Positions 20,221-38,971 of a DNA stretch of 64,000 bases are shown one piece after another. This stretch comes from an uncultured Gammaproteobacteria bacterium (lineage in GTDB: Bacteria; Pseudomonadota; Gammaproteobacteria; CAWCPV01), in the NCBI GenBank assembly GCA_963797555.1, contig CAWCPV010000003.1, positions 384,001 to 448,000 of the forward strand. The letters run 5' to 3'. Made by a program: the position numbers and the translations under genes. The notes beneath the pieces were generated by a model. It saw only the letters and a list, made by a program, of their open reading frames with translations. It did no database searches and had not been told where the DNA came from. Every line of letters begins with the position of its first letter. Position 1 is the stretch's first letter.

Positions 20221-20609
20221 CTTCATGCGCGAAGGACACTCTCGACGGTAGCCCGGCCGAGCTTGGCGCTCGGTCTCGCTGGGCCGGCCTCCCCGAGAGC
20301 GGATCGCCAGGCGGCATGCGTCAATCGCCGCGCCTGGAACATGAGTCGCTTCATCGGTGCATCGCCCCTTCCCGGGGCAGCGGAGGCATCGCGGACGTTG
20401 CCGCCGGCCAGCGGAGATGAAGCCATGCGGCGGAACGCCCGCAAGGGGCTTCCGCCTACGCGGGCTGCCAAAACAAATCACGATGGGCCTCGCAACGCGC
20501 CTCAACGTCTGCGCCCACAGCCCCATCGAGCTCATGCGGTGCGAGAAGCCTATGGCTGCCGCCCAACGGCCCACACGATATCACGTCCTCCGCAAAGGCT
20601 ACACGGCGA

Positions 20610-20621
20610 GACCTGACCCCG
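20610..20621 (-). repeat. GGGGTCAG-type REP-like motif, left border of the mosaic island
   Basis: GACCTGACCCCG is the exact reverse complement of CGGGGTCAGGTC at 32353-32364. Confidence 0.55.
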
Positions 20622-20744
20622 TAGGTTCCGCTCCGTGCCGTCACCTGGCGACGCGACTTCATGAGCCTGCCAAGCCAGTAACGCCGTGTTGGCGCGCGCC
20701 GGTCGCCGCCTCTACAATACGGTAAACAAGCGAGCCCCCAATCG

Positions 20745-22068
20745 ATGATGCCCGACACCAGCGACCTTCCTGCCATCGCACGCCTCTACCAGATCTGCGA
20801 GCCTTTGGAATCCCTGCACCCGACCGACCCGCGGTGGGTGAATTTCGACAACGTCCGCGGTGACGAGAACGTGGTCCAGCTCTATGCCCGCAGTTTGCGG
20901 CGGGCAACGCCTGAACGACCTGACTTCAAGCTGTTCACCGGTCACCGCGGCGTAGGGAAGACCAGCGAACTCTTCCGCCTCAAAGCGTTGCTGGAGCAGC
21001 CCGGCGACGGCAAGCTAGGCTTTCTCGTGGTGTTCTGCGATGTCAGCGACCGGCTCGATGTCAACGACCTGGATTTCCCCGACCTGCTGGTCTTCGTCGC
21101 GGCCACAACTGCAGACGCAACTCGACGCGCTTCGACTGCCGGGTTTCAGCCCCGTCACCACCCATCTCAAACGCGTTTGGGAAGACATCCGCGAAATGCT
21201 GGGTAGTCAGGTGGAGCTGAAGGGAGTCGAGGTGGACGTCGGTTTCGGCAACCTGACGTTGGAACTCCGCAACCGTCCCAACTCTCGCGGACTGCTGCGG
21301 AATGCTGTGGAAAAGCACAGCACGTCGCTGCTCAATGCGGTGAATGATCTGCTGTCTTCGGCGGAAACCTCCGCCCGCACCGCCGGCCATGCCGGCTTGG
21401 TGCTGATCATCGACGGCCTGGACAAGCTGGTTCGGCGCAACCTCGGCAACGGCAACAACACCCACGACCGTCTGTTTATCGATCGCAGCGAGCAGCTCGC
21501 CTCGTTGCGCGTCCATACCGTCTACACGGTGCCTATCTCGCTGAATCTACTCGCCGCGCTTTGGCCAGCTTGAGCAGTCCGTGGGTGAGCACAACGCCCC
21601 GGTCTCCATGATCCGCCTCAGACCGAGGCGCGAAGCGCCGGTGAGCCCAGATTCGCCCGGCATGGCCAAGATGCGGGAGATGGTCGAGAGGCGTTGCACC
21701 TGTGCCGGCACGTCGCTGCGGGACGCCTTCGACAATACCGAAACATTGGACCATCTCTGCGAGATGAGCGGCGGTCACCCTCGCCACCTGATGATGTTCC
21801 TGCGGCCTGCAACGAGCTGGACGATCTCCCGATCACGCGCAAGGCGGCCGATAAGGCCGTTCGCAAGTACGGCAACGCGCTGCTGCGCGAGGTGCCGGAT
21901 CCGGCCTGGGATGCTCTGCCGAAGTTCAACGAGCCCCAGCGGGACATCCCGAAGGACGACCTCCACCAGCAGATGCTGTTCCTGCTGTTCGTGTTCGAGT
22001 ACATGAATGGTGAGATGTGGTATGAGGTCAACCCGGTGCTGCGGACCCTTGAGCGCTTCCGTCGCTGA
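20745..22068 (+). CDS. P-loop (STAND/AAA-like) ATPase; about 3 frameshifts
   Basis: Walker A TGHRGVGKTSEL, Walker B LIIDGLDK, VYTVPISL, SGGHPR and WYEVNPV across ORFs 20745, 21040, 21581 and 21694. Confidence 0.75.
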
Positions 22069-23092
22069 GTCCGCTGTCGAGCAGGCTGGCGAAGCGTTCC
22101 GCGCGTTGCGCCGCGGCATCGTGCGCAGCCGCGGCTTCTCGCTACATATCTGCGCCTGCGACGCGCCGGCCAGCCGCGACCAGTTCATCGCCAACCTCGC
22201 TGCGTCCATGCCGGCGGTCACCCTTCATCGCGTCGAGCTGGCCGGCACTGACGACGATGCGCTGGATGCGGTGGTCAAGGTCCTAGAAAACGGTTCACCC
22301 GGGCCCGTGATGGTGGTGGGCACCGAGCGCGCACTTGCCGACGATGCCCATGCGCAACGCTTGCTGAGCGGCCTCAATCTTCGCCGCGCGGAATGGCCAG
22401 CGCGCGTCCCGCATCCCGTCATCTTCTGGCTGCCACGCCGGTTCTTGGGCCTCTTGACGATCGGCGCGCCCGATTTCTTCGACTGGCGCAGCGACACCAT
22501 CGAGTTCCCGGAACTCAGTAGCGACGACGTACGTCCCCTCGCCCACCGAGACTGGAAGTTCGGCGTAGATCCGCGCTTCTCGGCGCAGGAACGGGAGGAA
22601 CGCTTGCGAGAGCTGAAAGCTCGCATCGCGGCCTCCCGGGGCTCAGATGACGAAAATGTCGTCAGGAACTGCTTGGAATGGTGGGATGAGGTCGCTGAAC
22701 TAGAGTTGGTGCGGGGCGGTATCGACGAGGCCCTGCGCATCCGCACCGAGGAGCAGCTGCCGGTCTTCGAGCGCCTCGGCGACGTGCGCGAGAAAGCCAT
22801 CACCCAGGGCCAGATCGCCGACATCCTCCAGGCCCGCGGCCAGCTCGACGAGGCCCTGCGCATCCGCACCGAGGAGCAGCTGCCGGTCTTCGAGCGCCTC
22901 GGCGACGTGCGCTCGCTGCTGGTCTGCCGCGCGAATATCGCGCTGACGCTGCTGGCACTTCGAAAGGCCGACCAGCGCGCGCATGCGAACAAGCTGCTCT
23001 GCCTGGCCTTAGCCGATGCGCGCCGCCTGCGCCTCACAGAGGAGGATGAAATCAATCAGATCCTGCGCCAGAACGGGATGGAATGCGCGTGA
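22049..23092 (+). CDS. ATPase partner: degenerate P-loop-like domain plus TPR repeats
   Basis: LNLRRAEW..VIFWLP..APDFFDWRS; 41-aa repeat DEALRIRTEEQLPVFERLGDVR (68 bp identical at 22722 and 22845). Overlaps the ATPase stop. Confidence 0.7.
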   Translation: MSASVAESAVEQAGEAFRALRRGIVRSRGFSLHICACDAPASRDQFIANLAASMPAVTLHRVELAGTDDDALDAVVKVLENGSPGPVMVVGTERALADDAHAQRLLSGLNLRRAEWPARVPHPVIFWLPRRFLGLLTIGAPDFFDWRSDTIEFPELSSDDVRPLAHRDWKFGVDPRFSAQEREERLRELKARIAASRGSDDENVVRNCLEWWDEVAELELVRGGIDEALRIRTEEQLPVFERLGDVREKAITQGQIADILQARGQLDEALRIRTEEQLPVFERLGDVRSLLVCRANIALTLLALRKADQRAHANKLLCLALADARRLRLTEEDEINQILRQNGMECA

Positions 23093-23107
23093 AATGGGGT
23101 CAAATAC

Positions 23108-23392
23108 GAATGGCACTTACTTAAGCGTAACTGACTGAATTTTCGATCAGAAAGGCTGGCGGAGGTGATAAGGCTGTCAGTCGCCAAACCCAACCCATCA
23201 CCCAGGGAGCCAGCCCACATGCATCCTAGCCACTGCGCCTGCGCTCAGCAACACCGACGGATCCGTCATCAGGCCGCCAACACGGATTCCTACGCGTTTT
23301 TCAACCTGCTCACCGGCCCACGGTTGTTCGAACAAGTCGAGTTGCTGCTGCCTGAGCACCGTGAGCGGCTGTTTCCACCCACCGAGACTTTC
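23108..23392 (+). mobile_element. IS4-family element remnant (left end plus transposase N-terminus)
   Basis: End-like GAATGGCACTTACTTAAG directly after AATGGGGTCAAATAC; MHPSH...FFNLLTGP..LLPEHRERLFPPTET is a typical IS4 transposase N-terminus, then truncated. Confidence 0.65.
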
Positions 23393-23413
23393 CGGAAGCT
23401 CTTTGGTCGCCAT

Positions 23414-23606
23414 CTCCGGAGCCAGCTTGCGGCGGGTGCCTTTCTAGTGTCCAATGACTGTGCGCTGACGTGAAGAATCTCGGGGCGGCGGACCACGGCC
23501 GCCACAGGGAGGGACACAATCCATGGCCGAAGTGCCCACCAAGCGCCTGAAGCTCGAGGACACGCGCTACCTGTCGCCGCCGCTCGTCGGCGAACCGCTC
23601 TATCAG
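23414..23606 (+). repeat. Diverged direct duplicate of 23782-23975 (upstream region plus first 28 codons of the hydrolase gene), truncated
   Basis: Both copies encode MAEVPTKRLKLEDTRYLSPPLVGEPLYQ, with scattered substitutions. The first copy stops at CAATG-CAATGGGGTCAGACAC. Confidence 0.9.
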
Positions 23607-23891
23607 CAATGCAATGGGGTCAGACACCGTTACCTCGTATTCCGGCGCCGTGAGACTGGCTTCGTTCGAACGGAGAGCAAAGCCAGAAGCTTCTGCCGTG
23701 CCGTCTCCCTCGGTTGCGTCCTCGGCCGCCCCTGCCAGCCTTTCCAGGTACCGGCGGCAAAGGGAGTAATCACCATTGTGCCTCCGGAAAGCCGCTTGCA
23801 GCGGGTGCCTTTCTAGTGTCCAATGGCCGGGCGCTGACGTGAAGGATCTCGGGGCGGCGGATCACGGCCGCCATAGGGAGGGAGACAATCC

Positions 23892-26448
23892 ATGGCCGAA
23901 GTGCCCACCAAGCGCCTCAAGCTCGAGGACACGCGCTACCTGTCGCCGCCGCTCGTCGGCGAACCGCTCTACCAGTGCGCGCAAGCCGTCGTGGTCTACG
24001 GCTTCGACGTCGGCGCAACCCTAGACCTCGAGCGCAACGGCGCCATCGTGCTGGCCGGCGTTCCGGGCGGATTTCCGCAGCCGCAGGGCGCCCTCCTGAC
24101 GTTGCCGGCGCCGCTCGTGGCCGGCGATGTCATCCGGGCGCGCCAGAAAGCCAACGGCATGACTAGCGGCTGGTCGCCAGCAGTGACCGTCCGCGATCAC
24201 AGCCAGGAGTATCCCGATGGACCGCCGCGGCCGCAGATCGACCCAGCGCCGGTCTACCAGTGCGGCTCGCGCACCGGCGTGGACAACCTGCTGACGGGCT
24301 GCGACGTGTGGGTCACGGCGGACGCGGTCGAGGTCGGCAAGGTCAAGGGTGCCGCGCCGCACCAGGGCGTCAACGTCGACGCCGGACTATGGGCTGGGCC
24401 AGGAGGTCCGCGCCTGGGCGAGCATGTGCGACGACGCCAGCCCGCCATCGATCGCCTACGACACCATCGCCCCGCCCAATCCTCTGCCGACGCCGGGGAT
24501 CGACCCCGCCTACGAGGGCACCCAGCAGATCCGCATCACCAATCTCGTGAACGGCGCACGCTTCGAGCTGTCGCTGAACGGCAGCTCGCTCGGCGTCTGG
24601 CGAACCTGGGGTTATGCCCATCTGGTCGGTCTTTCGTCGCCGCTCAACACCGGCGACACGCTATCGGTCGTGCAGCGGATGTGCCCCGGCAATCCGTCCA
24701 GCAATCCGGGCGGTACCACGGTCCTGCCGTGCTCGGCGCTGCCGGCCCCGCAAGTTGCGCCGATCCAGTGCGGCGACACGGCAGTCACCATCACTCAAAT
24801 GGCGAGCGGCGCCACGATCAAGGTCTACGTCAACCACGTGAAGGCCGGCGAAGGCGGCGGTCCCGGCGTGCTGCTCAATCACGCGATTCAGCACGGCGAC
24901 GTCGTCAGACGTCGTTCAAACGCTCGGCAAGTGCGTCAGCCAGTTCGCACAAGAACTCACCTGCCTGTGCGTCGCGCCTCACGTGACCTTCGACCCGTCG
25001 GCCCTCGACCTCTTTCCGGTGGGCTTCGCCGATTACGACGGCGGGTCGGTCAGCGTCGGCGGGCAGACGCTGGACGTCCGCGGCACCGTTTACTATCCGG
25101 CGGAAGACGACGGCGCGAGCCAGCCATTCAACGAGCGGCGCGGCAAGCGCGGCCCCGTCCCGCTGATCTTCATGGCGCACGGCAATCATTGCCCCGCAAC
25201 GGTCCCGAGCCACCTTGGCTACGACTACTTCCAGCAAGCGCTTGCGAAAATGGGGTTCGTCGCGGTGTCCGTCGATTGCAACGAGTTGAACTGCTCGGCC
25301 TCGGGTCCGGGCAACATCGTCGACCGCGCCGACCTCATCAACGCGTCGATCGCGCACTTCCAGTCACTCAACGCGGGCGACCCGATATTCAAGGGCCACC
25401 TGGATTTCCTGAAGGTCGGGCTCATGGGACACTCGCGCGGCGGCGAGGCCGTGGTGATTGCGCCCATTCGCGCGAGCAAGCCGGCCGGCGTGGCGATTCT
25501 CTGCGTGCTGTCGCTCGCTCCGACCGACTGGGGCGCGACCAGCGGTCCGCCCACGGACTACGAATTCCTCACGCTGTTGCCCGCCGCGGACGGCGACGTG
25601 TGGAGCAACGACGGCGCGAAGTATTACGACCGCTGCCTGCCGCCCTCGTTCAAGTCGCAGCTCTATGTCCACAATGCATGCCACAACTATTTCAACCGGC
25701 AGTGGCTGAACAACGACAACGGAGGAACGTTGCCGACCATGGCGCGCTCCGACCACGAGCGGGTGCTGCTCGCTTACGGTTGCGCGTTCTTCCGCCGCGT
25801 GCTGGCAGGCCACGACACGGCCGGGATTCCTGGTCGGCAGCGAGTTGCCGCCCGCGACGCCGACCTCGCTCGTCCACCTGGCCTTCAAGTGGACGAAGGC
25901 GACGACGGTGGACGATCATCAGCAGAACAACACGATCGCCAAGAATTCACTCAACGAACCGACGGCCCAGACCGGCCTCACGGCCGACGAGTTCGGGATG
26001 AGCCAGACCGCGGCCAACCAGTTCAACGGCTCCTTCTTCGGCGACTCGATCGGCATGGTCGCGGTGCCCAAGAAGGCCAACGGCACATTTCGCTCGCAAC
26101 TCAAGCCCAAGACGAATCTCGCCGCCAAGGAGATCTGGATTCGTGTTGCGGATGTGTTCACGGGAGCTTTTCCGTCGGCTGCCACAGGATTCGAACTTGG
26201 GCTGGAATTGGCCAATGGATCGGTCAAGTGGGTGGACTCGGAGGACATTGGCGGTGTGCCGTTGCCGTTTGACTACGGCAGTACGACCAAGAGCATGTTG
26301 TCGACGCTGCGCTTTCCGGTCCGATGTTTCCATCTCGTCGAAAAGCGATAGCGCAATCCGCGCCATTCTGTTGCGCCTCAATCGTACGAAGGCGAGAGCG
26401 CTGGCGTTCGACGACCTGCAAATCGTCTGGGCGCGGAGATCGACATGA
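23892..26448 (+). CDS. Large protein: Cys/Pro-rich Ig-like repeats plus alpha/beta hydrolase; several frameshifts
   Basis: Repeated P.Y.C...V.V..GA modules; GTVYYP, FMAHGNH, SHLGYDY, nucleophile GHSRGGE, DGDV and HNYFN across ORFs 23892, 24349, 24983, 25845 and 26143. Confidence 0.7.
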
Positions 26449-26847
26449 CAATGCAAGACGACGGAACCGGGCGCGAAAGGCCCCGCGAACGATAAGCCGA
26501 TGACGTGCCTGCGGTCAAGTCGGCGGTCGCACGCCGTGTCCGTTACGAGAAACCGCGTCGTTTCTTCGAGCACGGAAAGGAATACACGAGAGTCCGACGT
26601 GATCGAAATCGACGTGGAAACCGACGCCGAGTTCCCGTTAGCCGGGACCGGACCCGCGCTGTTCGTTGGCAAGGTTCCCATCATCGACAGCGTGCGTGTC
26701 GCCGAGCGCCAGTATCGCTTCTTCGCGCCTGCGTCTTTGTCGCTGCGAAAAGGCGCGCCCATTGCGCTCGGACGGGCGGGCTCGGGCGTTCCCGTTCCGG
26801 AAAAGAAGACCAAGCTGAAGCTCGAGTGGAGCGGTGAGGTGATATGA
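26445..26847 (+). CDS. Small hypothetical protein coupled to the hydrolase gene; frameshifted
   Basis: ATGA overlap at 26445-26448; ORFs 26505 and 26500 join into VKSAVARRVRYEKP...DVIEIDVETDAEFPLAGTGPALFVG. Confidence 0.45.
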
Positions 26848-27939
26848 ACGGCGCGGCGCATGCCTGGTGCCTGCCGTCCCGTCGCCCTCGGTCCACATAA
26901 AGGGCTCTGACCCGACGGTTGAGGGTTCAGGGGCCCGGACAACCCGCCCAGTCGCCCAGCCGGCGCGCCGGGCTTGACAACCCGGCTCGCGCTCGTCCAG
27001 ACTTCGCCGGTGTGCAAGGCGCTCTGTCCGGGGGCCTGCACGGGGCAAGTCAGTCCATCTGGGGCGGCGGATAGATCACCCGGATGCATCCTCAGCCTGC
27101 CGAAGGGCGCGTCCTGAGCGGGGCCACGTTCCCCCGCCTCAAACACACTTCTGCCGAAGGAGCTACGAAATATGGAAGCCTCAACAACCATTAGAAAAAT
27201 GATGGCCGGCAACAGAATTGTGGTGCCCGCTTATCAGCGCGCGTACTCGTCGGATACCCCCACAAAGAACTCCGACATAACCACCCAAACGGATGTATTC
27301 TTACTAGATTTAGAGGAATACGGCAGAAGCAACACACAAAGCCCGCATTACTTTGGCCACTTTATTTTTGAAGAACACAACGACGCGTTTAGTGTAATTG
27401 ACGGCCAACAACGGCTAACGACCCTTGTTATCTTTTTATCTGCTCTTTTTGCCAAGCTAAAAGCCAGGGCTTTGACGGAAGAAGAAGAAGAGTGCTATGA
27501 AGACATGGTGAAGCGACGGAACAAAATACGCTTTTTGACTGTTGACTACGATGAGCAGCTATTCCTCGACTACGTAATAAATCAGACCAAGTCCGACCAT
27601 AACGGCCTTGATACGGAATCTTCGCGGAGAATCGTCAGAGCATTTGACTTTTTCAAAGAGCAACTCACCGAAAAGTCCGAAGACTATTTGATTAAAATGC
27701 TTTCTATTATTAGCGAGGCAACTTGCACAACGCACCCGGTCACGAATGAATCCGAAGCAATACAGATGTTCATATTTCAAAACAACCGAGGGAAGCGGCC
27801 GTCAAACCTCGAAATTATCAAAGCGCAATTCATGTACCATGTCCACTTGTATGGGAACGACGACAAAGACGGATTAGTGAAGGAAATTAAAAACCGTTTT
27901 GAAAAAATCTACAAATCAATCTCATCGGTCGAATATAGA

Positions 27940-29604
27940 CCTGGATCCATGACTTGAATCTCCGAGCGCCCGGGGCGCGAGAGAATGGGAGCTATTCTCA
28001 GTTGAGTTGGTTAGTTTTTAGCCAACCGGTGACGCCGGCTATGTACAGCGGGCGTAGACCCTCGTCGGCGCAGGAGTGACGGCGGGGCTTTGAGGCTTGG
28101 ACGCTGAATTTCGGGCGTAGGTTTACACCGGGGTCTGGTGAGGCCCGGGTCGAGTTTCTATGGAGGTCGTCCTAGCTACCCGAAGGCGAGTTGGTAATAC
28201 AGCTGCTCGAAGGCGCGGAAGCCGGGACAGAGCCGGCTGAAGCGCAGCTTCAGTCTGCGGGCGGTGGCGACCAACCGGGCGGCGAGGTACATCAGTTCCT
28301 GGAGGACGGTCTTGATCCGCCGGCGCTTGGCCGGATGGCGCAGGGGAGCCGACTCGCCGGTCAGCCCGATGAGCCCGATGAAGCGCAGGATGTTGTAGGC
28401 GAACACGGCAAAGGCGAGCACCAGGTCATTGGTGTCGAATTTCCCGGAGGGCAGCCGTTCGATATCGAGGTCGGTCTTGAACTCGCTGTGGAACTGCTCG
28501 GAGGTGCCGTGGTCACGGTACAGGGCGACAATCTCCGCGTCCGGATAGGCGAGCAAGGTCCACCAGCCCTCGAGCTCCAGCTCCGGTACCAACAGCGCCT
28601 GGCCCTTCTTGTCGATGGTGCGCTCGGTCACCCGCATCACCCGGCGAACGTGGTAGGTGTGCTCCCGATGGGGGTGCTCCTCGACGACGCTGAACAGCGC
28701 CACGCGCTTGCCGGGTCGGGGTGTCTCCCATGCCCCTTGGCGCTCGGCGCGCTCCAGCCAATGGGCAGGGTCCTCGCCCCGAGGGTTCCACTGGATAATG
28801 AAGTCCACCTCCTCTTCGAGGTAGCGCAGCCGGTTCTCCAAGGCGTTGTGGGCGCTGTCCTGGCGCACCAGCAGCGGCAGTTTGGTCAGGCGCCTGGCCC
28901 GCGGCAGGATGCGCTCCCAGACCTAGCCGAATTCCTTCTGACTGTGCTGCTTGCCTTCTCGCAGCTCACAGCCGACGCACCACCCTTCGGTTCCCACATA
29001 GGTCGCGATCGGCGCATAACCGTCATAGCCGTGGTAGGTGCGCGAGACTCCTTCTTGCTTGGTCCCGGAGTTGTCCATGGGAAAGACATCGATGTCCACC
29101 GGCACATGACCGGTCTTGAGCGCACTGACCGGTGCCTTGGCGTTGACCATGAACTCGATATCGGCCTCGTCAATGACCTCCCGCAGGACCGCTGCGTGCT
29201 CGTCAAGACGCTGCCTCAGCGTTTCTGGCGAGGGTACCCGCTCCAGCCCCAACGCCTGGCGGAAGAAATCGTCCTCTCGGACGTTGGAGACCGCTTCGAA
29301 GTCACTCTTGCCCAAACACATCAACCCCAGATAGCTCTTGGCTACGTCTTCATGGGAGATGCCGTGGCGTAGCGGGATCGCCTGCTTCAGCGCCTTGCCC
29401 AGGCCGCTGAAGCGGTTGACGCAAAGACCGACCAAGGCCAGACCAGAATGGGAGGTGTAAAATTCCTCATCGGACTGCTCCAAGATGAACCGCTTCATCG
29501 TTCACCTGCCGGGTGAGCTGGAGTGCGGCCCGATTTTAGCTGAACTGCAATGATAAATCAGCAGGTTGCGGCCATCCGCTGAGACGCGAAGTCACGGAAT
29601 CAGG
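27940..29604 (-). mobile_element. IS1380-family insertion sequence
   Basis: IRs CCTGGATCCATGACTT / AAGTCACGGAATCAGG (13/16 match) and 5-bp target duplication ATAGA (27935-27939, 29605-29609). Confidence 0.92.
28176..29498 (-). pseudogene. IS1380 DDE transposase with in-frame TAG at 28923-28925
   Basis: TSHSGLALVG, PSPETLRQRLD, VDIDVFPMDNS, RQDS, YRDHGTSEQFHSEFKTDLDIERLPSGKF; both ORFs are in the same frame. Confidence 0.85.
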
Positions 29605-30550
29605 ATAGAATCAATGAAGACGATGTTTTGTTGTACACACTACACGTGAATTTCAATTCGCTGTGGGAAACGAATTCTTTAGATAGATGCAACAAGATTT
29701 TGGCTGACGGCAATCAAATCCCATTTATAAGAGCGTTTACAGACTCACTCTCGAAAAGTTTTGAGTGCCTTTCGGTGTTTTTCGGCAGTCATGAGCGGAA
29801 CAACTTTGAGATTCATTCATTGGTAACACTTGGCGGCATAGGCGTTGCGTTGCCGTTTATAATTAAAGCGTGTAGATATGGTTTGTCGCGTGATGAGATT
29901 GGTGGGCTGTGTTCATCGTTAGAAGCACTGGTGCTTCGGCATAGGATAATCGGTACGCGAGCAGACATTACCTCAAGAGTCAACGATGTGTTCGAGAAGT
30001 TTACGGAAAACGACAAGGACACGTCCCCGATAGTTTCGCGAATCGATTGGATGAAGACGACGACGGACTGGTGGTGTGCCCACTGGAACAATGAAAAATT
30101 TAGGGAGGCCCTTCAAGGGGGGCTCAATCATTCAGTTGCAAAATTCCTGCTCTGGAAATATGAAAATCACCTGATAGGAATTGGCAAGGGCGGCTCTATT
30201 TCGCGCTACGACCAAATTGAGCGACCGGAGCTCGAACACATTGCTCCGATTACGGAGCCTGAAAGTAGGCCGCACGGGTATGACACATATGACGAAGAGT
30301 TTTGTAATCAATTTATAGACTGCCTAGGCAATTACTTGCTTTTAACAAGAAGGCACAACCGTTCCATCCAGAACGATCCATTTCTGGTAAAACACGAGGA
30401 CTATACGTGGCTTGCACAGCAAAGGGAGGTGCGAAAGTTAGTTCCACACCCCGACACGGGCATCTGGAGCAGGCAGATAATACAAGAGAGGAAGGAAAGG
30501 ATCATTGCAGTAATCATGGCGATTTGCTGAAGGCCGATAGGAAGTCGTGC

Positions 30551-30686
30551 ACAGCTACAGCTACAGCTAATGGGGTCCAGCTACAGCTACAGCTACAGCT
30601 ACAGCTACAGCTACAGCTACAGCTAACAGCTAACAGCTAATGGGGTCAGACACGTAACAGCTAATCAGCTAATGGGGTCAGACACG
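30551..30686 (+). repeat. Ladder of tandem, variably 3'-truncated copies of CAGCTAATGGGGTCAGACACG
   Basis: Units read CAGCTA, CAGCTAA, CAGCTAAT, CAGCTAATGGGGTC and CAGCTAATGGGGTCAGACACG, all with the same 5' start. Confidence 0.9.
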
Positions 30687-30693
30687 ATAATCT

Positions 30694-31407
30694 GTGCTAT
30701 CCTTCGTGCAGTCACTTCACGACCTGAACCGCCAGCCGCAGCATGTCATCCAGCGCGGCAACAACCGCCAGGTGATCTTCGCCGCGGATGCGGACTATCA
30801 GTTTTTTCGCGATGCCCTGGTGGAAGCGGCAAGTCAGCATGGTCTGTCGATCCACGCGTATGTCTGGATGACCAACCACATCCATCTCCTGGCCACACCT
30901 GAATGCGACCACAGCATCAGCAAAGTCCTCCAGTCAGTGGGTCGGCGTTATGTGCAGTACTTCAACTTCGCATACCGGCGCAGCGGCACCTTGTGGGAAG
31001 GCCGCTACCGGGCGACGGTCGTCGATAGCGAGCGGTATCTGCTGACGCTGATGCGCTACATCGAGCTCAACCCGGTGCGGGCGGCCCTGGTGGCGCACCC
31101 CAGGGATTACCCCTGGTCCAGCTACCGGCGCAATGCGCATGGCGAGTCGGGATTGAACGCAGACTGGATGAGGCCGCACGAGGAATATCTGCGCTTGGGC
31201 CTTACTCCGGCGGAGCGGCAAGGTGCCTACCGGCAATTGTTCCGGGCGGCCGTCTCCGGCAACGACCTGAGGGAGATCCGTGAGTGCACGCACAAGGGCT
31301 GGGCGCTCGGCGGCAACCGGTTCAGGGACCAGGTCGAGGCGCTGGGGCAGCGGCGTGCAGCGTCCAAGGGTGTGGGCAGGCCGAGAAAGGACGATCATCG
31401 CGTCTGA
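30694..31407 (+). CDS. REP-associated tyrosine transposase (RAYT / Y1 HUH); N-terminus looks atypical
   Basis: QHVIQRGNNRQVIF, HAYVWMTNHIHLL (HUH), LWEGRY, YIELNPVRA, YPWSSY and C-terminal GRPRK. Flanked by inverted AATGGGGTCAGACACG (30671) and CGTGTCTGGCCCCGTT (31410). Confidence 0.9.
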   Translation: MLSFVQSLHDLNRQPQHVIQRGNNRQVIFAADADYQFFRDALVEAASQHGLSIHAYVWMTNHIHLLATPECDHSISKVLQSVGRRYVQYFNFAYRRSGTLWEGRYRATVVDSERYLLTLMRYIELNPVRAALVAHPRDYPWSSYRRNAHGESGLNADWMRPHEEYLRLGLTPAERQGAYRQLFRAAVSGNDLREIRECTHKGWALGGNRFRDQVEALGQRRAASKGVGRPRKDDHRV

Positions 31408-31425
31408 CCCGTGTCTGGCCCCGTT
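31402..31425 (-). repeat. Tandem GGG(G)YCAGAC REP-like motifs downstream of RAYT
   Basis: gtctgaccc-gtgtctggccccgtt; the first copy overlaps the RAYT stop codon. Confidence 0.75.
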
Positions 31426-31647
31426 CCTCTCGTTTCGTCGTCGTGTTCATCTTCGCCTCCTCGTTCGCCCCTCGGACCCGTCCCGGGGTTGAGCACATAT
31501 CAGGCGTCGGTGGCGACGAAGCTCAAGGTATTTCGACGGGTTACGACTCCCTGACAGCGGCGAACACCGCACATGAGGAGCTGGGGCGCCTTGGCCCACA
31601 TACGGCGTTGACGGGCGATGTCCTGATCACGTATACGTGAGCCCTCT

Positions 31648-31872
31648 TTGCACCCTGGACGTGAGGGAGAGGTGCCCGAGCACAACGACGAGAAGAAGCT
31701 CCGCATTCGCATGGACGAGGAGCTTCACCGACAGATTGGGATTCGTTGCGCCGAGATCGACACGACCATCGAGGACTCTGTCGTGGAGATGCTGGAACGG
31801 GACCTTTCGGCCAACGGAATCAGGAGTCGGTCCTCAGCAAGGTCTCCGGGGCGGAGGGAGAAGGGTCGATGA
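31648..31872 (+). CDS. Small ribbon-helix-helix-like DNA-binding protein
   Basis: KKLRIRMDEELHRQIGIRCAEIDTTIEDSVVEMLERDL has the RHH beta-helix-helix pattern. Confidence 0.45.
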   Translation: MHPGREGEVPEHNDEKKLRIRMDEELHRQIGIRCAEIDTTIEDSVVEMLERDLSANGIRSRSSARSPGRREKGR

Positions 31873-32352
31873 TCCGAAAGTCCCGCGCCAAGGCGGATCC
31901 GATGGAGCAAGAGATCGAGCGTGCGCTCAAGCCTGGAGCTTTCATCCCCGACCGCGCGTGCTTCTCGTTTGTGACCCGCCTCGCTGCGGTTGCCGCCAAG
32001 ATCGACAAGTTCACCAGCAGTGACCCCGCCCGGGCCGTCACCCTGTACGAGACGTTCCTCGCCGGCTGCTACGCCAAGATAGAAGGAGCTGGACGATTCG
32101 AGCGGCAGCTTCGGGCAGTTCGTCGGCGATCTGTACTGCGGCTGGATCAAGGCCCGCCAGGCAGACGGGGCCAATCCAGACGAAACCGCGTCCCGCTTGC
32201 TCGCCTGGATGGATGATGACCCCTACGGCTTTTGCTACCGCCTCGAAAAAGACGCTGCCAAGGTCCTCGACAAGGCCGGCCTCGCCGCGTTCGTGAAGCA
32301 GGTCCGAGGGAGATTGGACGGTGCGGCGAAGGCGACACCCGTGCGGCCAGAC
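31869..32352 (+). pseudogene. Hypothetical helical protein (DUF6880-like), frameshifted and 3'-truncated at a GGGGTCAGG motif
   Basis: DPARAVTLYETFLAGCYAKIE-ELDDSSGSFG..CGWIKARQ..LLAWMDDDPYGFC; plausible coding sequence appears to end at 32353. Confidence 0.5.
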
Positions 32353-32764
32353 CGGGGTCAGGTCCCGCCTTATAGCATCTGCGAAAAATGAATCGGGGAG
32401 TAAGCCGGTTCCTTGCCGACGGTTAGGCTGAAGTTTGTGTTCTCTGTTTGCCGCCTGGTTTCCCGGCGGTGCCACGGTATCTCGGCCATGCGTCGATTCG
32501 TCCCCGGCTCCTCGCAGAACCGGACTTTGGAGTGTTACACCATCCGGCTCCCAGTTTGGGTCTTCCACAGAGACATGGGATAGAGGTCTTCCTCATCCCA
32601 TCGACTCCGGGCGCCTTCCTTCCGTCTTGACGCTCGAAGGTCTCGCGCAACCCTTCCGGGTCGTACACCATCCCCATCAGGGCGTTGAACTGTCTGACGT
32701 CAATTACTCTGTCCGGTTGACGACAACTAGAATGGCCGCTCTGTAGTGTAGGCGGTAGTTGTCG

Positions 32765-33529
32765 TCAGCTCTTGTTCGATACCTCCTGGTTGCGGGTTGC
32801 TTGGCGCTTTCGGTAGCTCTGCCCGTTGAGCTCGATGATGTGGGCATGGTGGACGAGCCGGTCGATGGCGGCGACGGCCATCATGTTGTCGGGGAAGATC
32901 GCATCCCACTCGCTGAAGGGGTGGTTGCTGGTGATCAGGAGACTGCCGCTCTCGTAGCGGTGGGCGATGAGCTCGAAGAGCACGGAGCTTTCCATCTCGG
33001 TGCGCTTGACGTAGCCGATGTCATCGAGGACGAGCAGCGGGTACTTGTCGAGCTTGGCGAGCGCATCGCTGAGCCTGAGGGCCTGTTTGGCGGTTTGAAG
33101 CTCCTGGACGAGGCTGGTTGCCGAGGCGAAACGCACCCGCACCCCTTGGCTGATGAGCCCGTGCCCAATGGCTGCGGCGAGATGGGTTTTGCCGACGCCG
33201 GAGGGCCCGAAGAGCAGGAGGTTGTCGGTGCGCTCGACCCAGGTGGCATCCTCGGCGAGCTGCACGATCTGCTGGCGGTTCAGCCCGGCGCTGGCCGTGA
33301 AGTCGAAGTGCTGGAGCGTCTTGCCCGCGGGCAGGCGGGCATCGTTGAGGTGGCGCTCCAGGCGCCGCCGCTCGCGTTCGGCGAGCTCGTGCTCGCAGAG
33401 CGCGGCGAGATAGTCGGCGAGGCTCCAGTGGTGCTCGAGGGCCCGGGTTTGCAGCGGTTGATACAGCCGTGCCATGGTCGGCAGGCGCAGCTCCCTGAGC
33501 AGCAGGGGCAAGGTGGCGGCGTTAGCCAT
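32765..33529 (-). CDS. istB: IS21 helper ATPase IstB
   Basis: LRELRLPTM, GPSGVGKTHLA, LLVLDDIGY, ITSN and AAIDRLVHH. Confidence 0.95.
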   Translation of the reverse strand: MANAATLPLLLRELRLPTMARLYQPLQTRALEHHWSLADYLAALCEHELAERERRRLERHLNDARLPAGKTLQHFDFTASAGLNRQQIVQLAEDATWVERTDNLLLFGPSGVGKTHLAAAIGHGLISQGVRVRFASATSLVQELQTAKQALRLSDALAKLDKYPLLVLDDIGYVKRTEMESSVLFELIAHRYESGSLLITSNHPFSEWDAIFPDNMMAVAAIDRLVHHAHIIELNGQSYRKRQATRNQEVSNKS

Positions 33530-35051
33530 GGCACACCTCCTCGGCGGCACTGCGGTGGGTGGCGGGCAGGAGCGCGTCATAGTCGGCCAGCGGGTGCTGA
33601 GCAGTGGCGCCGAGAGGGAGCGTCGCGGGGGCTGGCGGTGCGAAGCGTTGTTGCAGGGCGCTGAGCGTGGGCGATAGGCCTCGCTCCAGGGCGGCCAGCC
33701 AGTGGGTCCCCAGGGCCTCCTGGCACTCGTGCTCGGCGGCGAGCTTGAGTGCGCCGACCATGCGCTTGCAGGCGTCGGCGGGCGCAAGGGTAGCGTCCAG
33801 ATGCTGCCAGATACGCTGATAGGTGGCATCCGGAAGCAGGGCGTCGCGGTACTGGAGCCGATAGAAGGCGCGGGGCTTCTTCACCAGCCATCCCACGAGA
33901 TGGCGATAGTCGATGCGGCTCGCCCGGCGCTTGCCCGGGGCCGGGTAGACCCGCGGGAGGATGAGCAGGGCCTCGGTGCCGAGGAACAGCTCCAGGCGGG
34001 CGTCATAGAGGTGCACCCGCAGGCGCTCGCCGATGAGCCGCGCGGGGACCGAGTAGACCACCAAGCGCACGGTGATGGTGCTGGCGGTGGTGACCTTCAC
34101 CCACAGCTCGGTGTAGTCGGCCGCGAAGGTCACCGGCAGGGGCCGCAGATGGGGGCGCTCGGCCTCGATGGCGGTGGCGTTACGCCGGTTGACGGCGGCG
34201 GTGACGGTGTCGAGAAAGTCCTGGTAGGACGCCACCGAGGGGAACTCGGCACTGCCCCGGGCCAGAAGGCGCTGCACGATACGGCGCTTCAAATGCCCGT
34301 GGGGTGACTCGATGCTGCCGTTCTCGTGGCAGGCCCCGGGGTTGTTGCGCGTCGGCCTCATCCCATAATGGGCGCAGAGCGCCGCGTAGCGCGCCGCAAG
34401 GTCGTGCTGGGCCTCAGCCGAGAGGTTCTTGAACGCCGCCGAGAGGCTGTCAGTGCGGTGCTCGGCCGGTGCACCGCCCAGGCGCAGCAGCGCCTGGCTG
34501 AGCCCCTCGGCGAGCGCCGTGAAGCTCTCCCCGCCCAGCACCACCCGCACCGTGCACCAGCCGCTGTAGGCCAGGCGGAAATGGTAGAGGCGGTGGGCGA
34601 GCGGCTCGCCGGCGATGGTGACGGTGACGTCCTTGAGCACGGTGAAATCCGACAAACCCCGCAGTCCCGGGACCTGCTGCTGTGGGAACATCACCTCCTT
34701 CTCGGGTCCATGCGCCGCCCGCCAGGCCTTCACCCGGCGCTGCAAGGTGCGCAATAGCTTGTCCGGGTACTGGCCCGGATGGCGCTCCTGGAGCCCTTCC
34801 AAGAGCGTCAGCGCGTGCAGTGCCGGGGTGTGCTCAAGCAGTGGGACCAGCTCGCTGTCCCACACGGTGTCAAAGGGGTCGCGGCGCGTTCGATACCGCC
34901 GCGCGCCCCGCGGTGCTCGACGCTCGTCCCGCTCGTCAAGACGGCGCGCCGTGCGCTCCGAGAAACCCGCCTTGGCGGCGGCGGTTACTTGGTTCTTACC
35001 TGCGGTTCTCTGTGACATATAGACCTTGACCTGTTGCGGTGTGACGGCCAT
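33522..35051 (-). CDS. istA: IS21 transposase IstA
   Basis: RTRRDPF, LRTLQRR, SDFT, HRTDSLSAA, ENGSIESPHGHLK and YSVPARLIG. Confidence 0.95.
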   Translation of the reverse strand: MAVTPQQVKVYMSQRTAGKNQVTAAAKAGFSERTARRLDERDERRAPRGARRYRTRRDPFDTVWDSELVPLLEHTPALHALTLLEGLQERHPGQYPDKLLRTLQRRVKAWRAAHGPEKEVMFPQQQVPGLRGLSDFTVLKDVTVTIAGEPLAHRLYHFRLAYSGWCTVRVVLGGESFTALAEGLSQALLRLGGAPAEHRTDSLSAAFKNLSAEAQHDLAARYAALCAHYGMRPTRNNPGACHENGSIESPHGHLKRRIVQRLLARGSAEFPSVASYQDFLDTVTAAVNRRNATAIEAERPHLRPLPVTFAADYTELWVKVTTASTITVRLVVYSVPARLIGERLRVHLYDARLELFLGTEALLILPRVYPAPGKRRASRIDYRHLVGWLVKKPRAFYRLQYRDALLPDATYQRIWQHLDATLAPADACKRMVGALKLAAEHECQEALGTHWLAALERGLSPTLSALQQRFAPPAPATLPLGATAQHPLADYDALLPATHRSAAEEVCHG

Positions 35052-35669
35052 CCCTCCCCCCGAAGCATCGGATGTCAGAACGCCGCCAGTGTGGCCGATC
35101 AACCGGACAAAGTAGTTGTCGCCAACCGGTCAACGTAATTGTCGCTCTATAGTTGAACCGCATCCGCGGCGCCTCGCGCGCCTTCTGTGTGAAACGCTCA
35201 AGTCGTGTGCTCACGGTCAGAATCCTCTCAGCGTAGGGCCGTGTTTCCCTCTCGCGTTATCTCAAACCGCCACCCCTTCGCTCCGCCCGCATTACCAGAC
35301 CTCGGCACTACTATGGGTGGCTCCGACTTCCGAACGCCTCCGCCCGTGTCCTCACTTCTTACACTTGTTCACGGGTGCCCACTCCCTGTGGACCGACGCC
35401 CGGACCTCCTCGGTTACCGCCTACTCGCGATGTCAGGCTCGACGCGGCCTCGGACCCCGGGGAGTACCCGCACCACTCGCCATCGCGCAGCGGGGGTTGT
35501 TGCCTGCCGGTTGGACAAGCCTGTCGGCGCTCTCCTGCTGAATTCTTCGGGGCTCTACACCTTCAAGGTCGGCTTCACCCGTTACCCTTGCACCTCCCCT
35601 GCTTTCGTTGCCTACGCATCTACCCGCCTGTTACCAGGTGAGCAGCAAGGCTCGATACTGGGCTCGTGG

Positions 35670-36837
35670 CTAGTGTAGTGCTTCATTCTGTTTAGAACTT
35701 AAACGTGCGTTGGCGCGGATGACCTTCTGCAGGATGTCCTTAGCCTTGGCGGTCCAGATGAAGGGTTTGGGATTGGCGTTGTGGGCATCGACATAGCGGT
35801 TGATGGCATGGATCAACTCGGGGACGCTTCGAAACACGCCACGGCGCAACCGATCCACAGTCAGGTCGCGGAAGAATCGCTCGACCATGTTCAACCAGGA
35901 TGCTGAGGTGGGCGTGAAATGGATGTGGAAACGCGGGTGTTTTCCCAGCCATTTCTGAACGTTGGGATGTTTGTGGGTGGCGTAGTTGTCGCAGACCAAG
36001 TGCAGTTCCTTGTCCTTGGGCGTCTCGCGGTCGATTTGGCGCAGGAAGGTGAGCCACTCCGTGTGGCGATGGTGCGGCTCGCAGCGGGCAATCACGGAAC
36101 CCTCCAAGGTGTTCAGGGCAGCAAACAGTGTCGTGGTGCCATGGCGCTTGTAGTCATGGGTCATGGTCGCAGCCCGCCCCTTCTTCAGCGGCAGGCCAGG
36201 TTGGGTACGATCCAGCGCCTGAACCTGACTCTTCTCGTCGCAGCACAACACCAAAGCATGCTCCGGGGGGGGACAGATACAGCCCGACGATGTCCTCCAA
36301 CTTCTCGGTGAATTTCGGGTCGCGCGATACCTTGAAGGATTCGACACGATGCGGCTTCAGCCCATGGGCATGCCACACGCGCAGCACCGTGGTGTCGCTC
36401 ACTCCCATTTCCTTAGCCAGGGTCCGCGTACTCCACTGTGTCGCTGCTAAGGGCTGGGTCTGAGTCGTGCGTCGCACGATCTCGGCGGCATCCACCTTGG
36501 GCTGACGACCTCCGCGCGGCAGGTCACACTCGATGGCCGCCAGCCCGCCTTGCGCATAGCGCTCCCGCCAACGCCCAACCTGCACACGCCCAATCTTGAG
36601 TTCCGCCGCGATGGCCTTGTTCTCCATGCCCACCGCCGCCAACAGCACAATGCGCGCTCGGCGGGCCAGCCTCACACTCGTGGTGTTCGAACGCGACACA
36701 CGCCTCAGGCTCCGCTGTTCTTCCGCGCTCAGTCGGACCATCGGGGCTACTCGCATCAGTGCTCTCCTGTCTTGGCTTCATAGCCCTGGACAGCGATAGA
36801 TCATATATGTTCCGTTAATTACCAAGCACTACACTAG
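35670..36837 (-). mobile_element. IS630-family insertion sequence; transposase 35670-36756 frameshifted at a C8 run (~36265-36272)
   Basis: Perfect IR CTAGTGTAGTGCTT / AAGCACTACACTAG at a CTAG target; motifs [33 protein letters not shown] and [10 protein letters not shown]. Confidence 0.92.
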
Positions 36838-37363
36838 CGATTACCCAGGTGGGCTTCACACCCACTAAAGTACGCAGCATTGCCAAGCCGCTGCCGACCC
36901 CCATCATCCTGGATCGCACGGTCGCCGTGGGGAGACGGGCGGGGCCGGTTGTCACGGTATGCGGGCACTGCGAGCTGGAGTACATGCCGAAATGTTGGAC
37001 GGAGCACGGCGCTGAGGTGCCGGAAATATTGCCGGGACCCGGAGCCGTGTGATCCGCGGGGACCGGCGAGGGAAGCCGTCCGAAGGTTGCGGGCGTTGCC
37101 TACGGAGACGTGGGTGGTACGTAACGACGTCGGCAACGATCCCGTTTGGCCTCACCGACGAATGCCATCCCAAGGTTTTTCAAAATGGCATCCTCGGGCT
37201 CCTCGATAAGTCGCTCTGCCGTTTCAGGGACACCTATGGCCTCCGTCGAGGGACGAATTCCCGTGAGCAGCCACCGTGTCGCCTCGGCCCAGGTCTGCCG
37301 ACTGCCCGTCGAGAGCGCGCGTCCGGACTAGCAGATGACCGGGAGGCGGCGCAGTAGGCGATA

Positions 37364-37803
37364 GTGGAGCGTTCCGTACTGCTCGCATTTGTGCTGGGCC
37401 TCGCCAGCACGCTGCACTGCCTCGGCATGTGCGGCAGCATCGTAGGCGCATTGACTCTGAGCCTTTCCCCGGAGATCAGGGCGCGCCGAACCGGTTTGTT
37501 GCTCTATGCGTTGGCATACAGTGCGGGCAGGGTCGGGACCTACGCCTTCGCCGGGGCGCTGGCGTGGAGCACGGCCGCGGGGGGGCGCCGGCCTGGGCAG
37601 TCTGTACATGCTCGCCTTCGGGCTGGGCACGCTACCGGCCGTCGTTGGGGCCGGCGTCCTCACCGGACACGTGACGCGCCTGCTAGCCAGGGGTCAGCTA
37701 CGGCAGGCTGTTGGGCTATTGGTCACCCTGGCCGCGGTGCTCAGCCTCGCGGCCGGCAACCTAGCCTCGAGACACTCAGGTGCGCATCTGGAGCACGGGG
37801 GCC

Positions 37804-37826
<23 letters not shown>
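37364..37826 (+). pseudogene. DsbD_2/TauE-SafE-like membrane protein with internal deletion and frameshift
   Basis: HCLGMCG..AYSAGRVGTY jumps straight to YMLAFGLGTLP; the expected middle part (LPCGLVY motif) is absent. Confidence 0.65.
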
Positions 37827-38760
<934 letters not shown>

Positions 38761-38971
38761 CCTGATGTCCGCGGAAACAGCCCGCAGGTCTCTCGTGGTT
38801 GACCCGTGAGCGCCTCCGGCGCCGCTGGTCCTCAGCCACTAACCCCGGCTCCGCAGTCTGGTGGCCGAGGCGAGGTCGCTGAAGCGCTGCACCGAACATC
38901 CGGCCGGTGTCTTACCGATGCCCGATGCTGTCCATCGCGTCTCGAGACCGCCGGATGGCGGTGTGACCATG

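Follow-up and report, generated by a model that had tools for sequence, protein, structure and literature searches.

GGGGWSAS-type repeats in a mosaic gammaproteobacterial region are most probably terminal inverted repeats of RAYT-like Y1/HUH transposases

A 16-kb stretch of contig CAWCPV010000003.1 of an uncultured gammaproteobacterium carries a short motif, GGGGTC(AG), at or near several places where one gene block gives way to another. It lies within the window, as we call the whole 64-kb stretch of DNA that was analysed, and includes a gene resembling those of the RAYTs, tyrosine transposases linked to repetitive extragenic palindromes (REPs). Does the motif mark the joints of an integron-like platform on which this enzyme assembles cargo genes, as a first-pass annotation proposed, or does it belong to an element of another kind? 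Most probably it is a terminal inverted repeat (TIR) of the GGGGWSAS type and belongs to TIRYT elements, whose transposases are RAYT-like Y1/HUH tyrosine enzymes, and the 16-kb stretch is a collection of mobile-element debris and broken accessory genes. The earlier observation was partly confirmed and its interpretation partly supported. The motif does belong to the RAYT-like enzyme, since inverted copies of it make up the ends of the gene at 30694-31407, as they do for homologues in other species, and this link is already known as the signature of TIRYTs and TIRtrons. The genome that contains the window comprises 5.35 Mb in 20 contigs (C-numbers below) and is 84.6% complete.

The repeats fall into two families, A and B. 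The 19-nt repeat of family A, AAATGGGGTCAGACACGAT, is the TIR of the Y1/HUH transposase gene, which is bracketed by ...TAATGGGGTCAGACACGATAATC on one side and by the inverted, doubled counterpart ATCGCGTCTGACCC-GTGTCTGGCCCC on the other. By sequence, the closest solved relative of the transposase is TnpA-REP of E. coli (4ER8, 1.9e-6), and the HUH motif (as HIH) and the YIELNP motif were seen in the alignment to it. For a structure model of the intact C4 paralogue (pLDDT 87.4), Foldseek ranks 4er8_A first (1.1e-9, TM score 0.77 on the target). Near-full copies of the gene occur three times in the genome, namely in the window, at C3 779436-778795 (93.9% amino acid identity) and at C4 653614-654285 (92.9%), and several truncated copies were found besides. 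With the C3 and C4 copies, DNA homology sets in at 30671 and breaks off at 31410 or 31423. As it stops at the TIRs, the gene and its two repeats behave as a discrete unit.

The same anatomy is found in other species. When one genome was scanned for each species, 147 of 174 pattern matches proved to encode relatives, and 80 loci were kept, including some from Thiobacillus, Nitrosospira, Methylophilaceae, Burkholderiales and some Gammaproteobacteria (protein identity 64-83%). Allowing one mismatch, the 5' core GGGTCAGAC was found no more than 200 nt upstream in 64 of the 73 loci whose flank was long enough; downstream, 52/79 have the inverted core, and both ends are present in 45/72. The 5' and 3' ends share one consensus, AAATGGGGTCAGACAC(G/C)AT, outside of which conservation drops abruptly, and the cross-species consensus of the 5' TIR is AAATGGGGTCAGACACGAT itself; the 9-nt core served to locate the ends, which weakens the argument in that only the ten flanking TIR positions count as independent evidence of conservation. 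These alignments show that the 19-nt end of one TIRYT family hardly varies among many Beta- and Gammaproteobacteria. The 30 relatives considered all belong to other families than this genome, and four sequencing runs contain only 0.06-0.07 of the sampled words.

Family B, GGGGTCAG(G/T)TCyCGCCTTGTAGCC...GAGGACG..., leads into Y1 genes whose products start MARRPRIEF (C7 296668, C7 297104) and forms the ends of a second Y1 transposase (TIRYT) family. The 20620(-) copy aligns over ~58 nt with the 5' ends preceding the Y1 genes at C7 296668, C7 297104, C16 120855 and C3 79413 and then diverges, so that it is a solo stub. The 32354(+) copy belongs to a sub-family of ~47 nt with two twins at C7 321319 and 321458 (94% identity). 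At C8 79477 and C14 13559, variants of the family-B motif lead into the 3' ends of Y1-like regions, and two more distant Y1 paralogues (C17 141968 and 145829) have 5' ends with GGGGTCAG or GGGGTCAA. The C-terminal helix-turn-helix (HTH) matches of the C17 paralogues are weak, all being below the Pfam cut-offs (HTH_23 4.8e-5, HTH_28 2.6e-4, Bac_DnaA_C 0.0071). Genome-wide there are 33 PF01797 matches, including classical IS200-type copies and several RAYT/TIRYT-like families. Two other origins of family B were considered and rejected. A Tn3-type inverted repeat does not fit, as the single Tn3-transposase fragment of the genome (C3 337389-338381, ~47 kb before the window) adjoins no B copy and B copies precede Y1 genes; nor is 32354 an IS21 end, because the IS21 nearby has TGT... 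ends of its own and its own target duplication.

The 20620 and 32354 copies are those that the first-pass annotation had singled out, at 20610 and 32353, as a perfect 12-bp inverted pair with cargo between its arms. The perfect 12-nt match was confirmed and lies within a 31-nt match of 84%, but the pair consists of two solo B ends whose arms both read away from the 11.7 kb between them, and the intervening DNA is therefore not bounded by it. A second outward-facing, family-B-like pair is present at C4 465013(-) and 465876(+), 0.86 kb apart, near an IS4-type copy and a relative of window positions 26930-27056, and thus the back-to-back arrangement of the window recurs.

RAYT-like genes flanked by TIRs have been named TIRtrons and their enzymes TIRYTs; they share the TIR motif GGGGWSAS and leave moderately abundant solo, dimeric and clustered TIR copies (Di Nocera 2013, PMC3733652, BMC Genomics 14:522). 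The unit of the window has the same build. Its enzyme is a Y1/HUH protein related to RAYTs and TnpA-REP, inverted terminal repeats replace the REP hairpins, and the 3' repeat overlaps the end of the gene. GGGGTCAG fits GGGGWSAS in both families, TIR copies occur solo, paired and clustered, and there are homologues on plasmids. A difference is that the 19-nt TIR of family A is conserved almost to the base. Of 26 TIRYTs, 20 fall into TnpA-Y1 subclass 2.1, with C-terminal HTH-type domains, which corresponds to RAYT Group 1 of Bertels (Quentin 2018, PMC6006769); Group 1 is widespread in Proteobacteria, occurs on plasmids and is flanked by 16-mers in ~12 copies per replicon (Bertels 2017). In the literature searched, the terms TIRYT and TIRtron turned up in no more than two works (three records). 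No biochemistry on TIRYTs or TIRtrons is reported in the available text of Di Nocera 2013 or Quentin 2018, and a literature search for the motif strings gave, among the matches listed, unrelated work throughout, mostly eukaryotic or viral.

With the REPtron of TnpA-REP (4ER8) the unit shares the fold, the HUH and Tyr motifs and inverted cognate repeats flanking the gene, and its local tandem repeat amplification recalls arrays of the bacterial interspersed mosaic element BIME-2 (Nunvar 2010). Unlike in REPtrons, the GTAG head (5' GT(A/G)G of REPs) is absent from the window's repeats, and these form no stable hairpin (fold z -0.22 to +1.51). A REP-like hairpin in the window's form of the repeat is not supported; all six possible stem pairs form in 9/64 of the 5' ends and 8/52 of the 3' ends, and a 7-bp hairpin forms only in the "ACCATTT" variant of other species (L070, z -2.73). 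The repeat is also present in tens of copies here, whereas REPs often exceed 100 copies with a single-copy gene, and the gene is multi-copy in a unit that behaves as a discrete movable segment, whereas REPtrons reportedly do not move as a whole (Quentin 2018). IS200/IS605 elements (IS608, ISDra2) likewise have a Y1/HUH transposase (PF01797) in a small one-gene unit present in several copies. They carry subterminal hairpins and no terminal inverted repeats, according to the background given in Quentin 2018, whereas the unit here has TIRs and lacks hairpins, and its protein reaches 21.7 bits on the IS200-type profile NF033573 (cut-off 55).

Several findings weigh against reading the window locus as a typical TIRtron. 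By comparison with the C3 and C4 copies, the window transposase gene lacks 34 nt including the native ATG, and its 3' TIR is degenerate. On NF047646, the NCBIfam profile for REP-associated tyrosine transposases, the window protein scores 74.7 bits and the intact paralogue 77.8, both under the cut-off of 80. HTH families, including Bac_DnaA_C, HTH_23 and HTH_28 as expected for subclass 2.1, gave no match, up to an E value of 1, to the family-A protein (235 aa), whose place in that subclass is therefore tentative; residues 161-224 are helical in the model. Across species, the 3' TIR was missed in 27/79 loci and the 5' TIR in 9/73. The family-A copies of the genome are only 88-89% identical in DNA, so that any movement is old, and with the window copy damaged there is no sign of present activity. 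Given the completeness and contig number of the assembly, repeat-rich arrangements could also include assembly errors.

Alternatively, the TIRtron might be immobile, a domesticated, host-serving nuclease like the classical RAYTs, with the 19-nt repeats as binding or regulatory sites and the short tandem duplications at its edges (stutters, see below) as products of replication slippage at a tightly bound protein. The age of the copies within the genome fits this, as does the extreme conservation of the TIR over proteins of only 64-83% identity, which is what a selected binding site would show. We nevertheless consider it unlikely, because near-full and truncated copies sit at different loci with the homology of two of them ending at the TIRs, and because in one complete betaproteobacterial genome the gene occurs three times, with flanks that part at the TIR (L070, L073, L078). 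Homologues are moreover found on 27 plasmid records. Plasmid homologues with 42-52% identity carry inverted GGGGTCAG or GGGGACAG, with 3 and 5 GGGGWSAS matches against 0.21 and 0.36 expected. The placing of Group 1 on plasmids, and the greater horizontal transfer suggested for it (Bertels 2017), point in the same direction.

Table 1. Positions of the transposase unit, the repeats and the neighbouring genes and elements (window coordinates unless a contig is named).
Feature	Position	Strand	Evidence or remark
Y1/HUH tyrosine transposase gene (TIRYT, RAYT-like)	30694-31407	+	PF01797 2.1e-13
5' TIR of TIRtron, TAATGGGGTCAGACACGAT	30670-30688	+	homology to other genome copies begins at 30671
3' TIR, doubled and degenerate, ATCGCGTCTGACCC + GTGTCTGGCCCC	31396-31422	-	includes transposase stop codon
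GTCTGACCC, then GTGTCTGGCCCC	31402-31410, then 31411-31422		transposase stop TGA 31405-31407
Stutter array outside 5' TIR, (ACAGCT)x14 with partial and complete TIR copies (30569-30577, 30639-30654)	30551-30669	+	
Solo family-A TIR AATGGGGTCAGACACCGTTA ("ACC" variant), preceded by stutter AATGCAATG	23612-23631	+	95% to termini of other species over 19-20 nt
Degenerate family-A TIR AATGGGGTCAAATACGAAT, left target-duplication copy	23093-23111	+	adjoins IS4-type element
Solo family-B 5' TIR with leader stub, GGGGTCAGGTCTCGCCGTGTAGCC...	20566-20620	-	~58 nt alignment to family-B 5' ends; member of 17-site cluster
Solo family-B TIR, ...CAGACCGGGGTCAGGTCCCGCCTTATAGCATCTGCGAAAAATGAATCG	32341-32393	+	reads rightwards; member of 17-site cluster
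GGGGTCAG sites	20613-20620(-), 23616(+), 30642(+), 30674(+), 32354(+)		
GGGGTC sites	23096(+), 30572(+), 36896-36901(-)		
GGGTCAGAGCCC, "weaker" site of the first-pass annotation	26902-26913	-	member of neither repeat family
Left-end fragment of IS4-type (DDE_Tnp_1) IS, inverted repeat GGCACTTACTTAAGCG	23112-23388	+	~90% to four other copies
Complete IS4-type copies	C3 779577-781070, C3 783272-784753, C4 462334-463829, C8 49448-50944		
ATPase-TPR gene, four reading frames	20745-23092	+	Walker A GHRGVGKTS at ~20940; weak TPR_12 (E 0.0019) in ORF 22007-23092
Duplicate of 23782-23975 (upstream region and first 28 codons of gene starting at 23892)	23414-23606	+	93% by BLAST; 95% over 182 nt
GmrSD-type (DUF262 + DUF1524) defence nuclease gene, IS-interrupted	27172-30530	+	GmrSD_N 2.9e-25 in 27172-27957; GmrSD_C 7.3e-13 in 29628-30530
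IS1380-family IS, frameshifted transposase	27940-29604	-	5-bp target duplication ATAGA; NF033539 3.6e-46 and 1.6e-47; ~20 copies at 86-99%
Ribbon-helix-helix-like ORF and ORF starting at ~31863, cut at 32340	31425-32340	+	paralogous to C4 327482-326465
Group II intron remnant	32394-36908	-	Rfam group-II-D1D4-6, 95.7 bits, 35445-35695(-)
IS21 in intron remnant	32691-35151		target duplication GTTGAAC; IstB 1.1e-71; rve/Mu-transposase C-terminal matches
IS630-type element in intron remnant	35669-36838		DDE_3/HTH matches

On the cargo-capture reading, dispersed GGGGTC(AG) copies serve the RAYT-like enzyme as recombination sites for taking up, shuffling and truncating defence genes, and the resulting array is integron-like but has neither a tyrosine recombinase nor attC sites. 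This reading fares worse still, and we regard it as very improbable. Each motif site that had been listed for it was found in the sequence (Table 1), although the positions given mostly start 1-7 nt before the GGGGTC/GGGTC core. The sites had been taken as one family; in fact two distinct repeat families were pooled, together with two non-members, at 26906 and 36896. The form at 26906, GGGTCAGAGCCC, has a single other genome copy (C9 185144), with which no flanks are shared, and the GGGGTC at 36896 sits in the 5' part of a group II intron remnant. The likeness to an integron (IntI, attI, attC) is superficial and consists of unrelated accessory genes that adjoin one another, some of them separated by a short sequence that recurs. 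A cassette array has one kind of site, in one orientation, at every boundary. Here there is no integrase, the sites are of two kinds and of mixed orientation along the stretch (-,+,+,+,-,+), several boundaries have no site, and others are the ends of insertion sequences (ISs) or an intron.

The motif at 23096, which directly follows the stop codon of the tetratricopeptide repeat (TPR) open reading frame (ORF) as had been stated, owes its place to an IS. It adjoins a fragment of an IS4-type element, a full copy of which has a 474-aa ORF (PF01609, 4.6e-9). Ends of this element abut a family-A repeat in ten of ten cases in the genome, and the four complete copies are flanked by 11-12 bp target duplications that, as read from the flanks, are made of the repeat core. 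A motif copy is therefore added by each IS4-type insertion, and the 23096 motif is half of a target duplication. The same IS end adjoins the TIR in other species (L024, L069). In inserting into a transposase-associated repeat, the IS4-type element parallels REP-targeting ISs such as ISPpu9 of Pseudomonas putida and IS1397; unlike in these, the target is a TIRYT terminal repeat and not a REP hairpin, and the duplication is the repeat core. That ISs take REPs as targets has been described (Nunvar 2010).

Other junctions have equally conventional causes. The GmrSD gene and the block preceding it are not separate cassettes; in-silico excision of the IS1380-family IS and one ATAGA copy gives an open frame of 562 codons, so they are one gene split by that insertion. 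Its G+C content is 0.48-0.53 and it has PADLOC matches of the HEC-06/Orf5/SspE type. At ~27.1 kb, between the hydrolase and GmrSD, the composition changes most sharply (G+C 0.62 to 0.48), and no motif belonging to either family lies at this junction. The right-hand junctions are the ends of the group II intron remnant, the IS21 and the IS630-type element. Most block boundaries are thus made by conventional events, namely the IS1380-family and IS4-type insertions and the intron with its IS21 and IS630-type elements, and neither 20745-23092 nor 23976-27900 recurs beside a TIR elsewhere in the genome.

What speaks for the cargo-capture reading, apart from the motif truly being the terminal repeat of the enzyme, also counts to some degree against plain element debris. 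At two sites, both correctly noted as cuts in the first-pass annotation, a host ORF breaks off exactly where a TIR has its outer edge: the ORF at 32340, whose C4 copy continues past the window's break point, and the gene copy at 23606. The segment 30671-32340 furthermore has a twin at C4; on the left it is limited by the 5' TIR, and it continues through the 3' TIR. Within it, 31425-32340 matches C4 327482-326465 with 91% identity over 1022 aligned columns. The cut ORFs and the C4 twin cannot be put down to plain IS activity, so some TIR-linked rearrangement is possible. Downstream of the twin segment, no bounding 3' repeat was found within 9.7 kb.

The sites are also clustered, with 70 TIR-type sites in 31 of 276 20-kb bins (500 random placements: mean 61.9, minimum 54) and five in the bin of the window, and tandem stutter copies account for part of this. 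The short motif itself is not enriched. For GGGGTC, the window has 48 copies where 58.7 were expected, and 95/100 shuffles reach 48; the genome has 3983 against 4081 (maximal-order Markov). For GGGGTCAG the counts are 8 against 3.55 in the window (at least 8 in 3/100 shuffles) and 226 against 258 in the genome under the same model. As short words, both are at or below the genome expectation, and the signal appears only on extension to longer forms: the 15-mer AATGGGGTCAGACAC has 18 copies in the genome and GGGTCAGACAC has 30. Clustering of the 226 GGGGTCAG sites by the following 18 nt yielded family B with 17 sites, including 20620(-) and 32354(+), and family A with ~22, including 23616, 30642 and 30674. 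By a crude split on ORFs and G+C at third codon positions (GC3), 137/226 GGGGTCAG sites and 27/30 GGGTCAGACAC sites lie outside coding-like ORFs, which make up all but 41% of the genome, whereas GGGGTC shows no shift (1616/3983). Y1-like regions within 250 nt are read into by 14/226 GGGGTCAG sites, compared with 76/20000 random positions. An explanation of the whole pattern by chance alone, with a G+C-rich 6-8-mer turning up repeatedly in a genome of 65% G+C, agrees with the hexamer and 8-mer counts and with the two sites unrelated to either family, but is refuted for the extended motif by the 18 copies of the 15-mer in 5.35 Mb and by the same 19-nt sequence flanking homologous genes in dozens of other species, and as an account of the whole it has next to no probability.

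With the motif read as a TIRYT end, attention turns to the edges of the TIRs, where short tandem duplications that include locus-specific flank straddle the outer edge at both ends. Outside the 5' TIR of the window, Tandem Repeats Finder reports a period of 6 x 14.2 at 30551-30639 and of 32 x 2.0 (96% matches) at 30624-30686. Across species, exact edge duplications occur at 19/68 5' ends and 13/52 3' ends, compared with 19/400 control segments. Partial TIR prefixes of at least 6 nt lie within 100 nt outside 17/59 5' ends and 12/48 3' ends, compared with 11/316 controls, and their commonest lengths are 7 and 9 nt, ending in ...GGGGT and ...GGGGTCA. On a larger scale, family-A gene stubs are followed by a fresh 5' repeat at C3 781-782 kb and, in other species, at L010 and L025. 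The two families are nested at C7 296400-297500 (L086), where A breaks off after RGNNRQ at a B 5' end and B, in turn, after HLFQGRF at an A 5' end; the nested unit of ~435 bp is repeated twice in tandem. Stutters, a TIR-targeting IS4-type element and nested truncated copies are not described in the available text of Di Nocera 2013 or Quentin 2018, and the stutters across species, the core-duplicating IS and the nested copies are possibly new observations.

How such scars might arise can be sketched. The enzyme would bind the TIRs and nick near their outer edge, and successive rounds of nicking and rejoining, or else slippage of replication where the DNA is bound or nicked, would leave stutters and nested truncated copies and occasionally truncate a neighbouring ORF. 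A broader proposal, which we offer as speculative and rather doubtful, is that the TIR outer edge is a site of recurrent enzyme nicks whose repair or re-initiation leaves graded scars: stutters of a few nt that restart mostly after GGGGT or GGGGTCA, partial copies of the gene in tandem (100-400 nt) with a new 5' repeat at the head of each, truncated neighbouring ORFs and, occasionally, one-ended mobilisation through the 3' repeat that carries adjacent genes along. TIRtrons and the repeat-homing IS4-type element would then seed and remodel islands rich in mobile elements without any ordered cassette system. The segment 30671-32340 and its C4 twin may exemplify the one-ended mobilisation.

A motif spotted by eye is thereby tied to an element class that has been described but is neglected and little studied. 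The stutter end points, the nested truncated copies and the repeat-homing IS are sequence hints to where the enzyme may cut. For annotation, GGGGWSAS-type repeats beside broken genes in such genomes are to be read as TIRYT ends or as duplicates made by ISs, and not as cassette boundaries. Nested copies, stutters and an IS4-type element that homes into the repeat add modestly to what is known of TIRYTs, and no new cargo-capture system emerges.

The accessory genes themselves are in various states of decay. The ATPase-TPR gene is probably a frameshifted pseudogene, as GC3 is coding-like in successive ORFs of different frames; it has no PADLOC or NCBIfam match. Its TPR-like ORF contains a perfect 68-nt direct repeat (22722-22789 and 22845-22912, 123 nt apart), which is a recently duplicated repeat unit of the TPR-like protein. 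Further upstream, between the end of a 1160-aa oxidoreductase gene and the family-B stub, lies a repeat of ~95 nt (20370-20467) with six other copies at 87-95% (C7 213564, C7 464853, C3 1007015, C5 10824 and others). The 193-bp direct duplication 23414-23606/23782-23975, whose first copy is broken at the TIR that follows, brackets the solo family-A TIR and ~150 nt that match nothing elsewhere. Beside this TIR no remnant of a Y1 gene was detectable, and 23607-23781 was rejected as a decayed Y1 gene end, since only the 20-nt repeat has any match. The label "ribbon-helix-helix" for the ORF after the transposase is a tentative reading of the translation, to which no family matched in profile scans.

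Homing of the group II intron into the family-B repeat was considered as well. The 3'-exon flanks of six other copies all differ, so the candidate was dropped and the position of the intron beside the repeat is coincidental. At least eight other copies or fragments of group II introns are present in the genome, and a fuller copy on C17 has a reverse transcriptase-like ORF, named from its YADD-type motifs. To the right of the intron, 36923-38936 is paralogous to C14 124928-122566 (~2 kb, 91-97%). The shared segment takes in a sigma-54 activator gene (37780-38760), and inside it, at 36923-37569, the two copies differ by what resembles an inversion. The C14 segment ends ~200 nt from an orphan family-A 3' end (C14 122246-122360).

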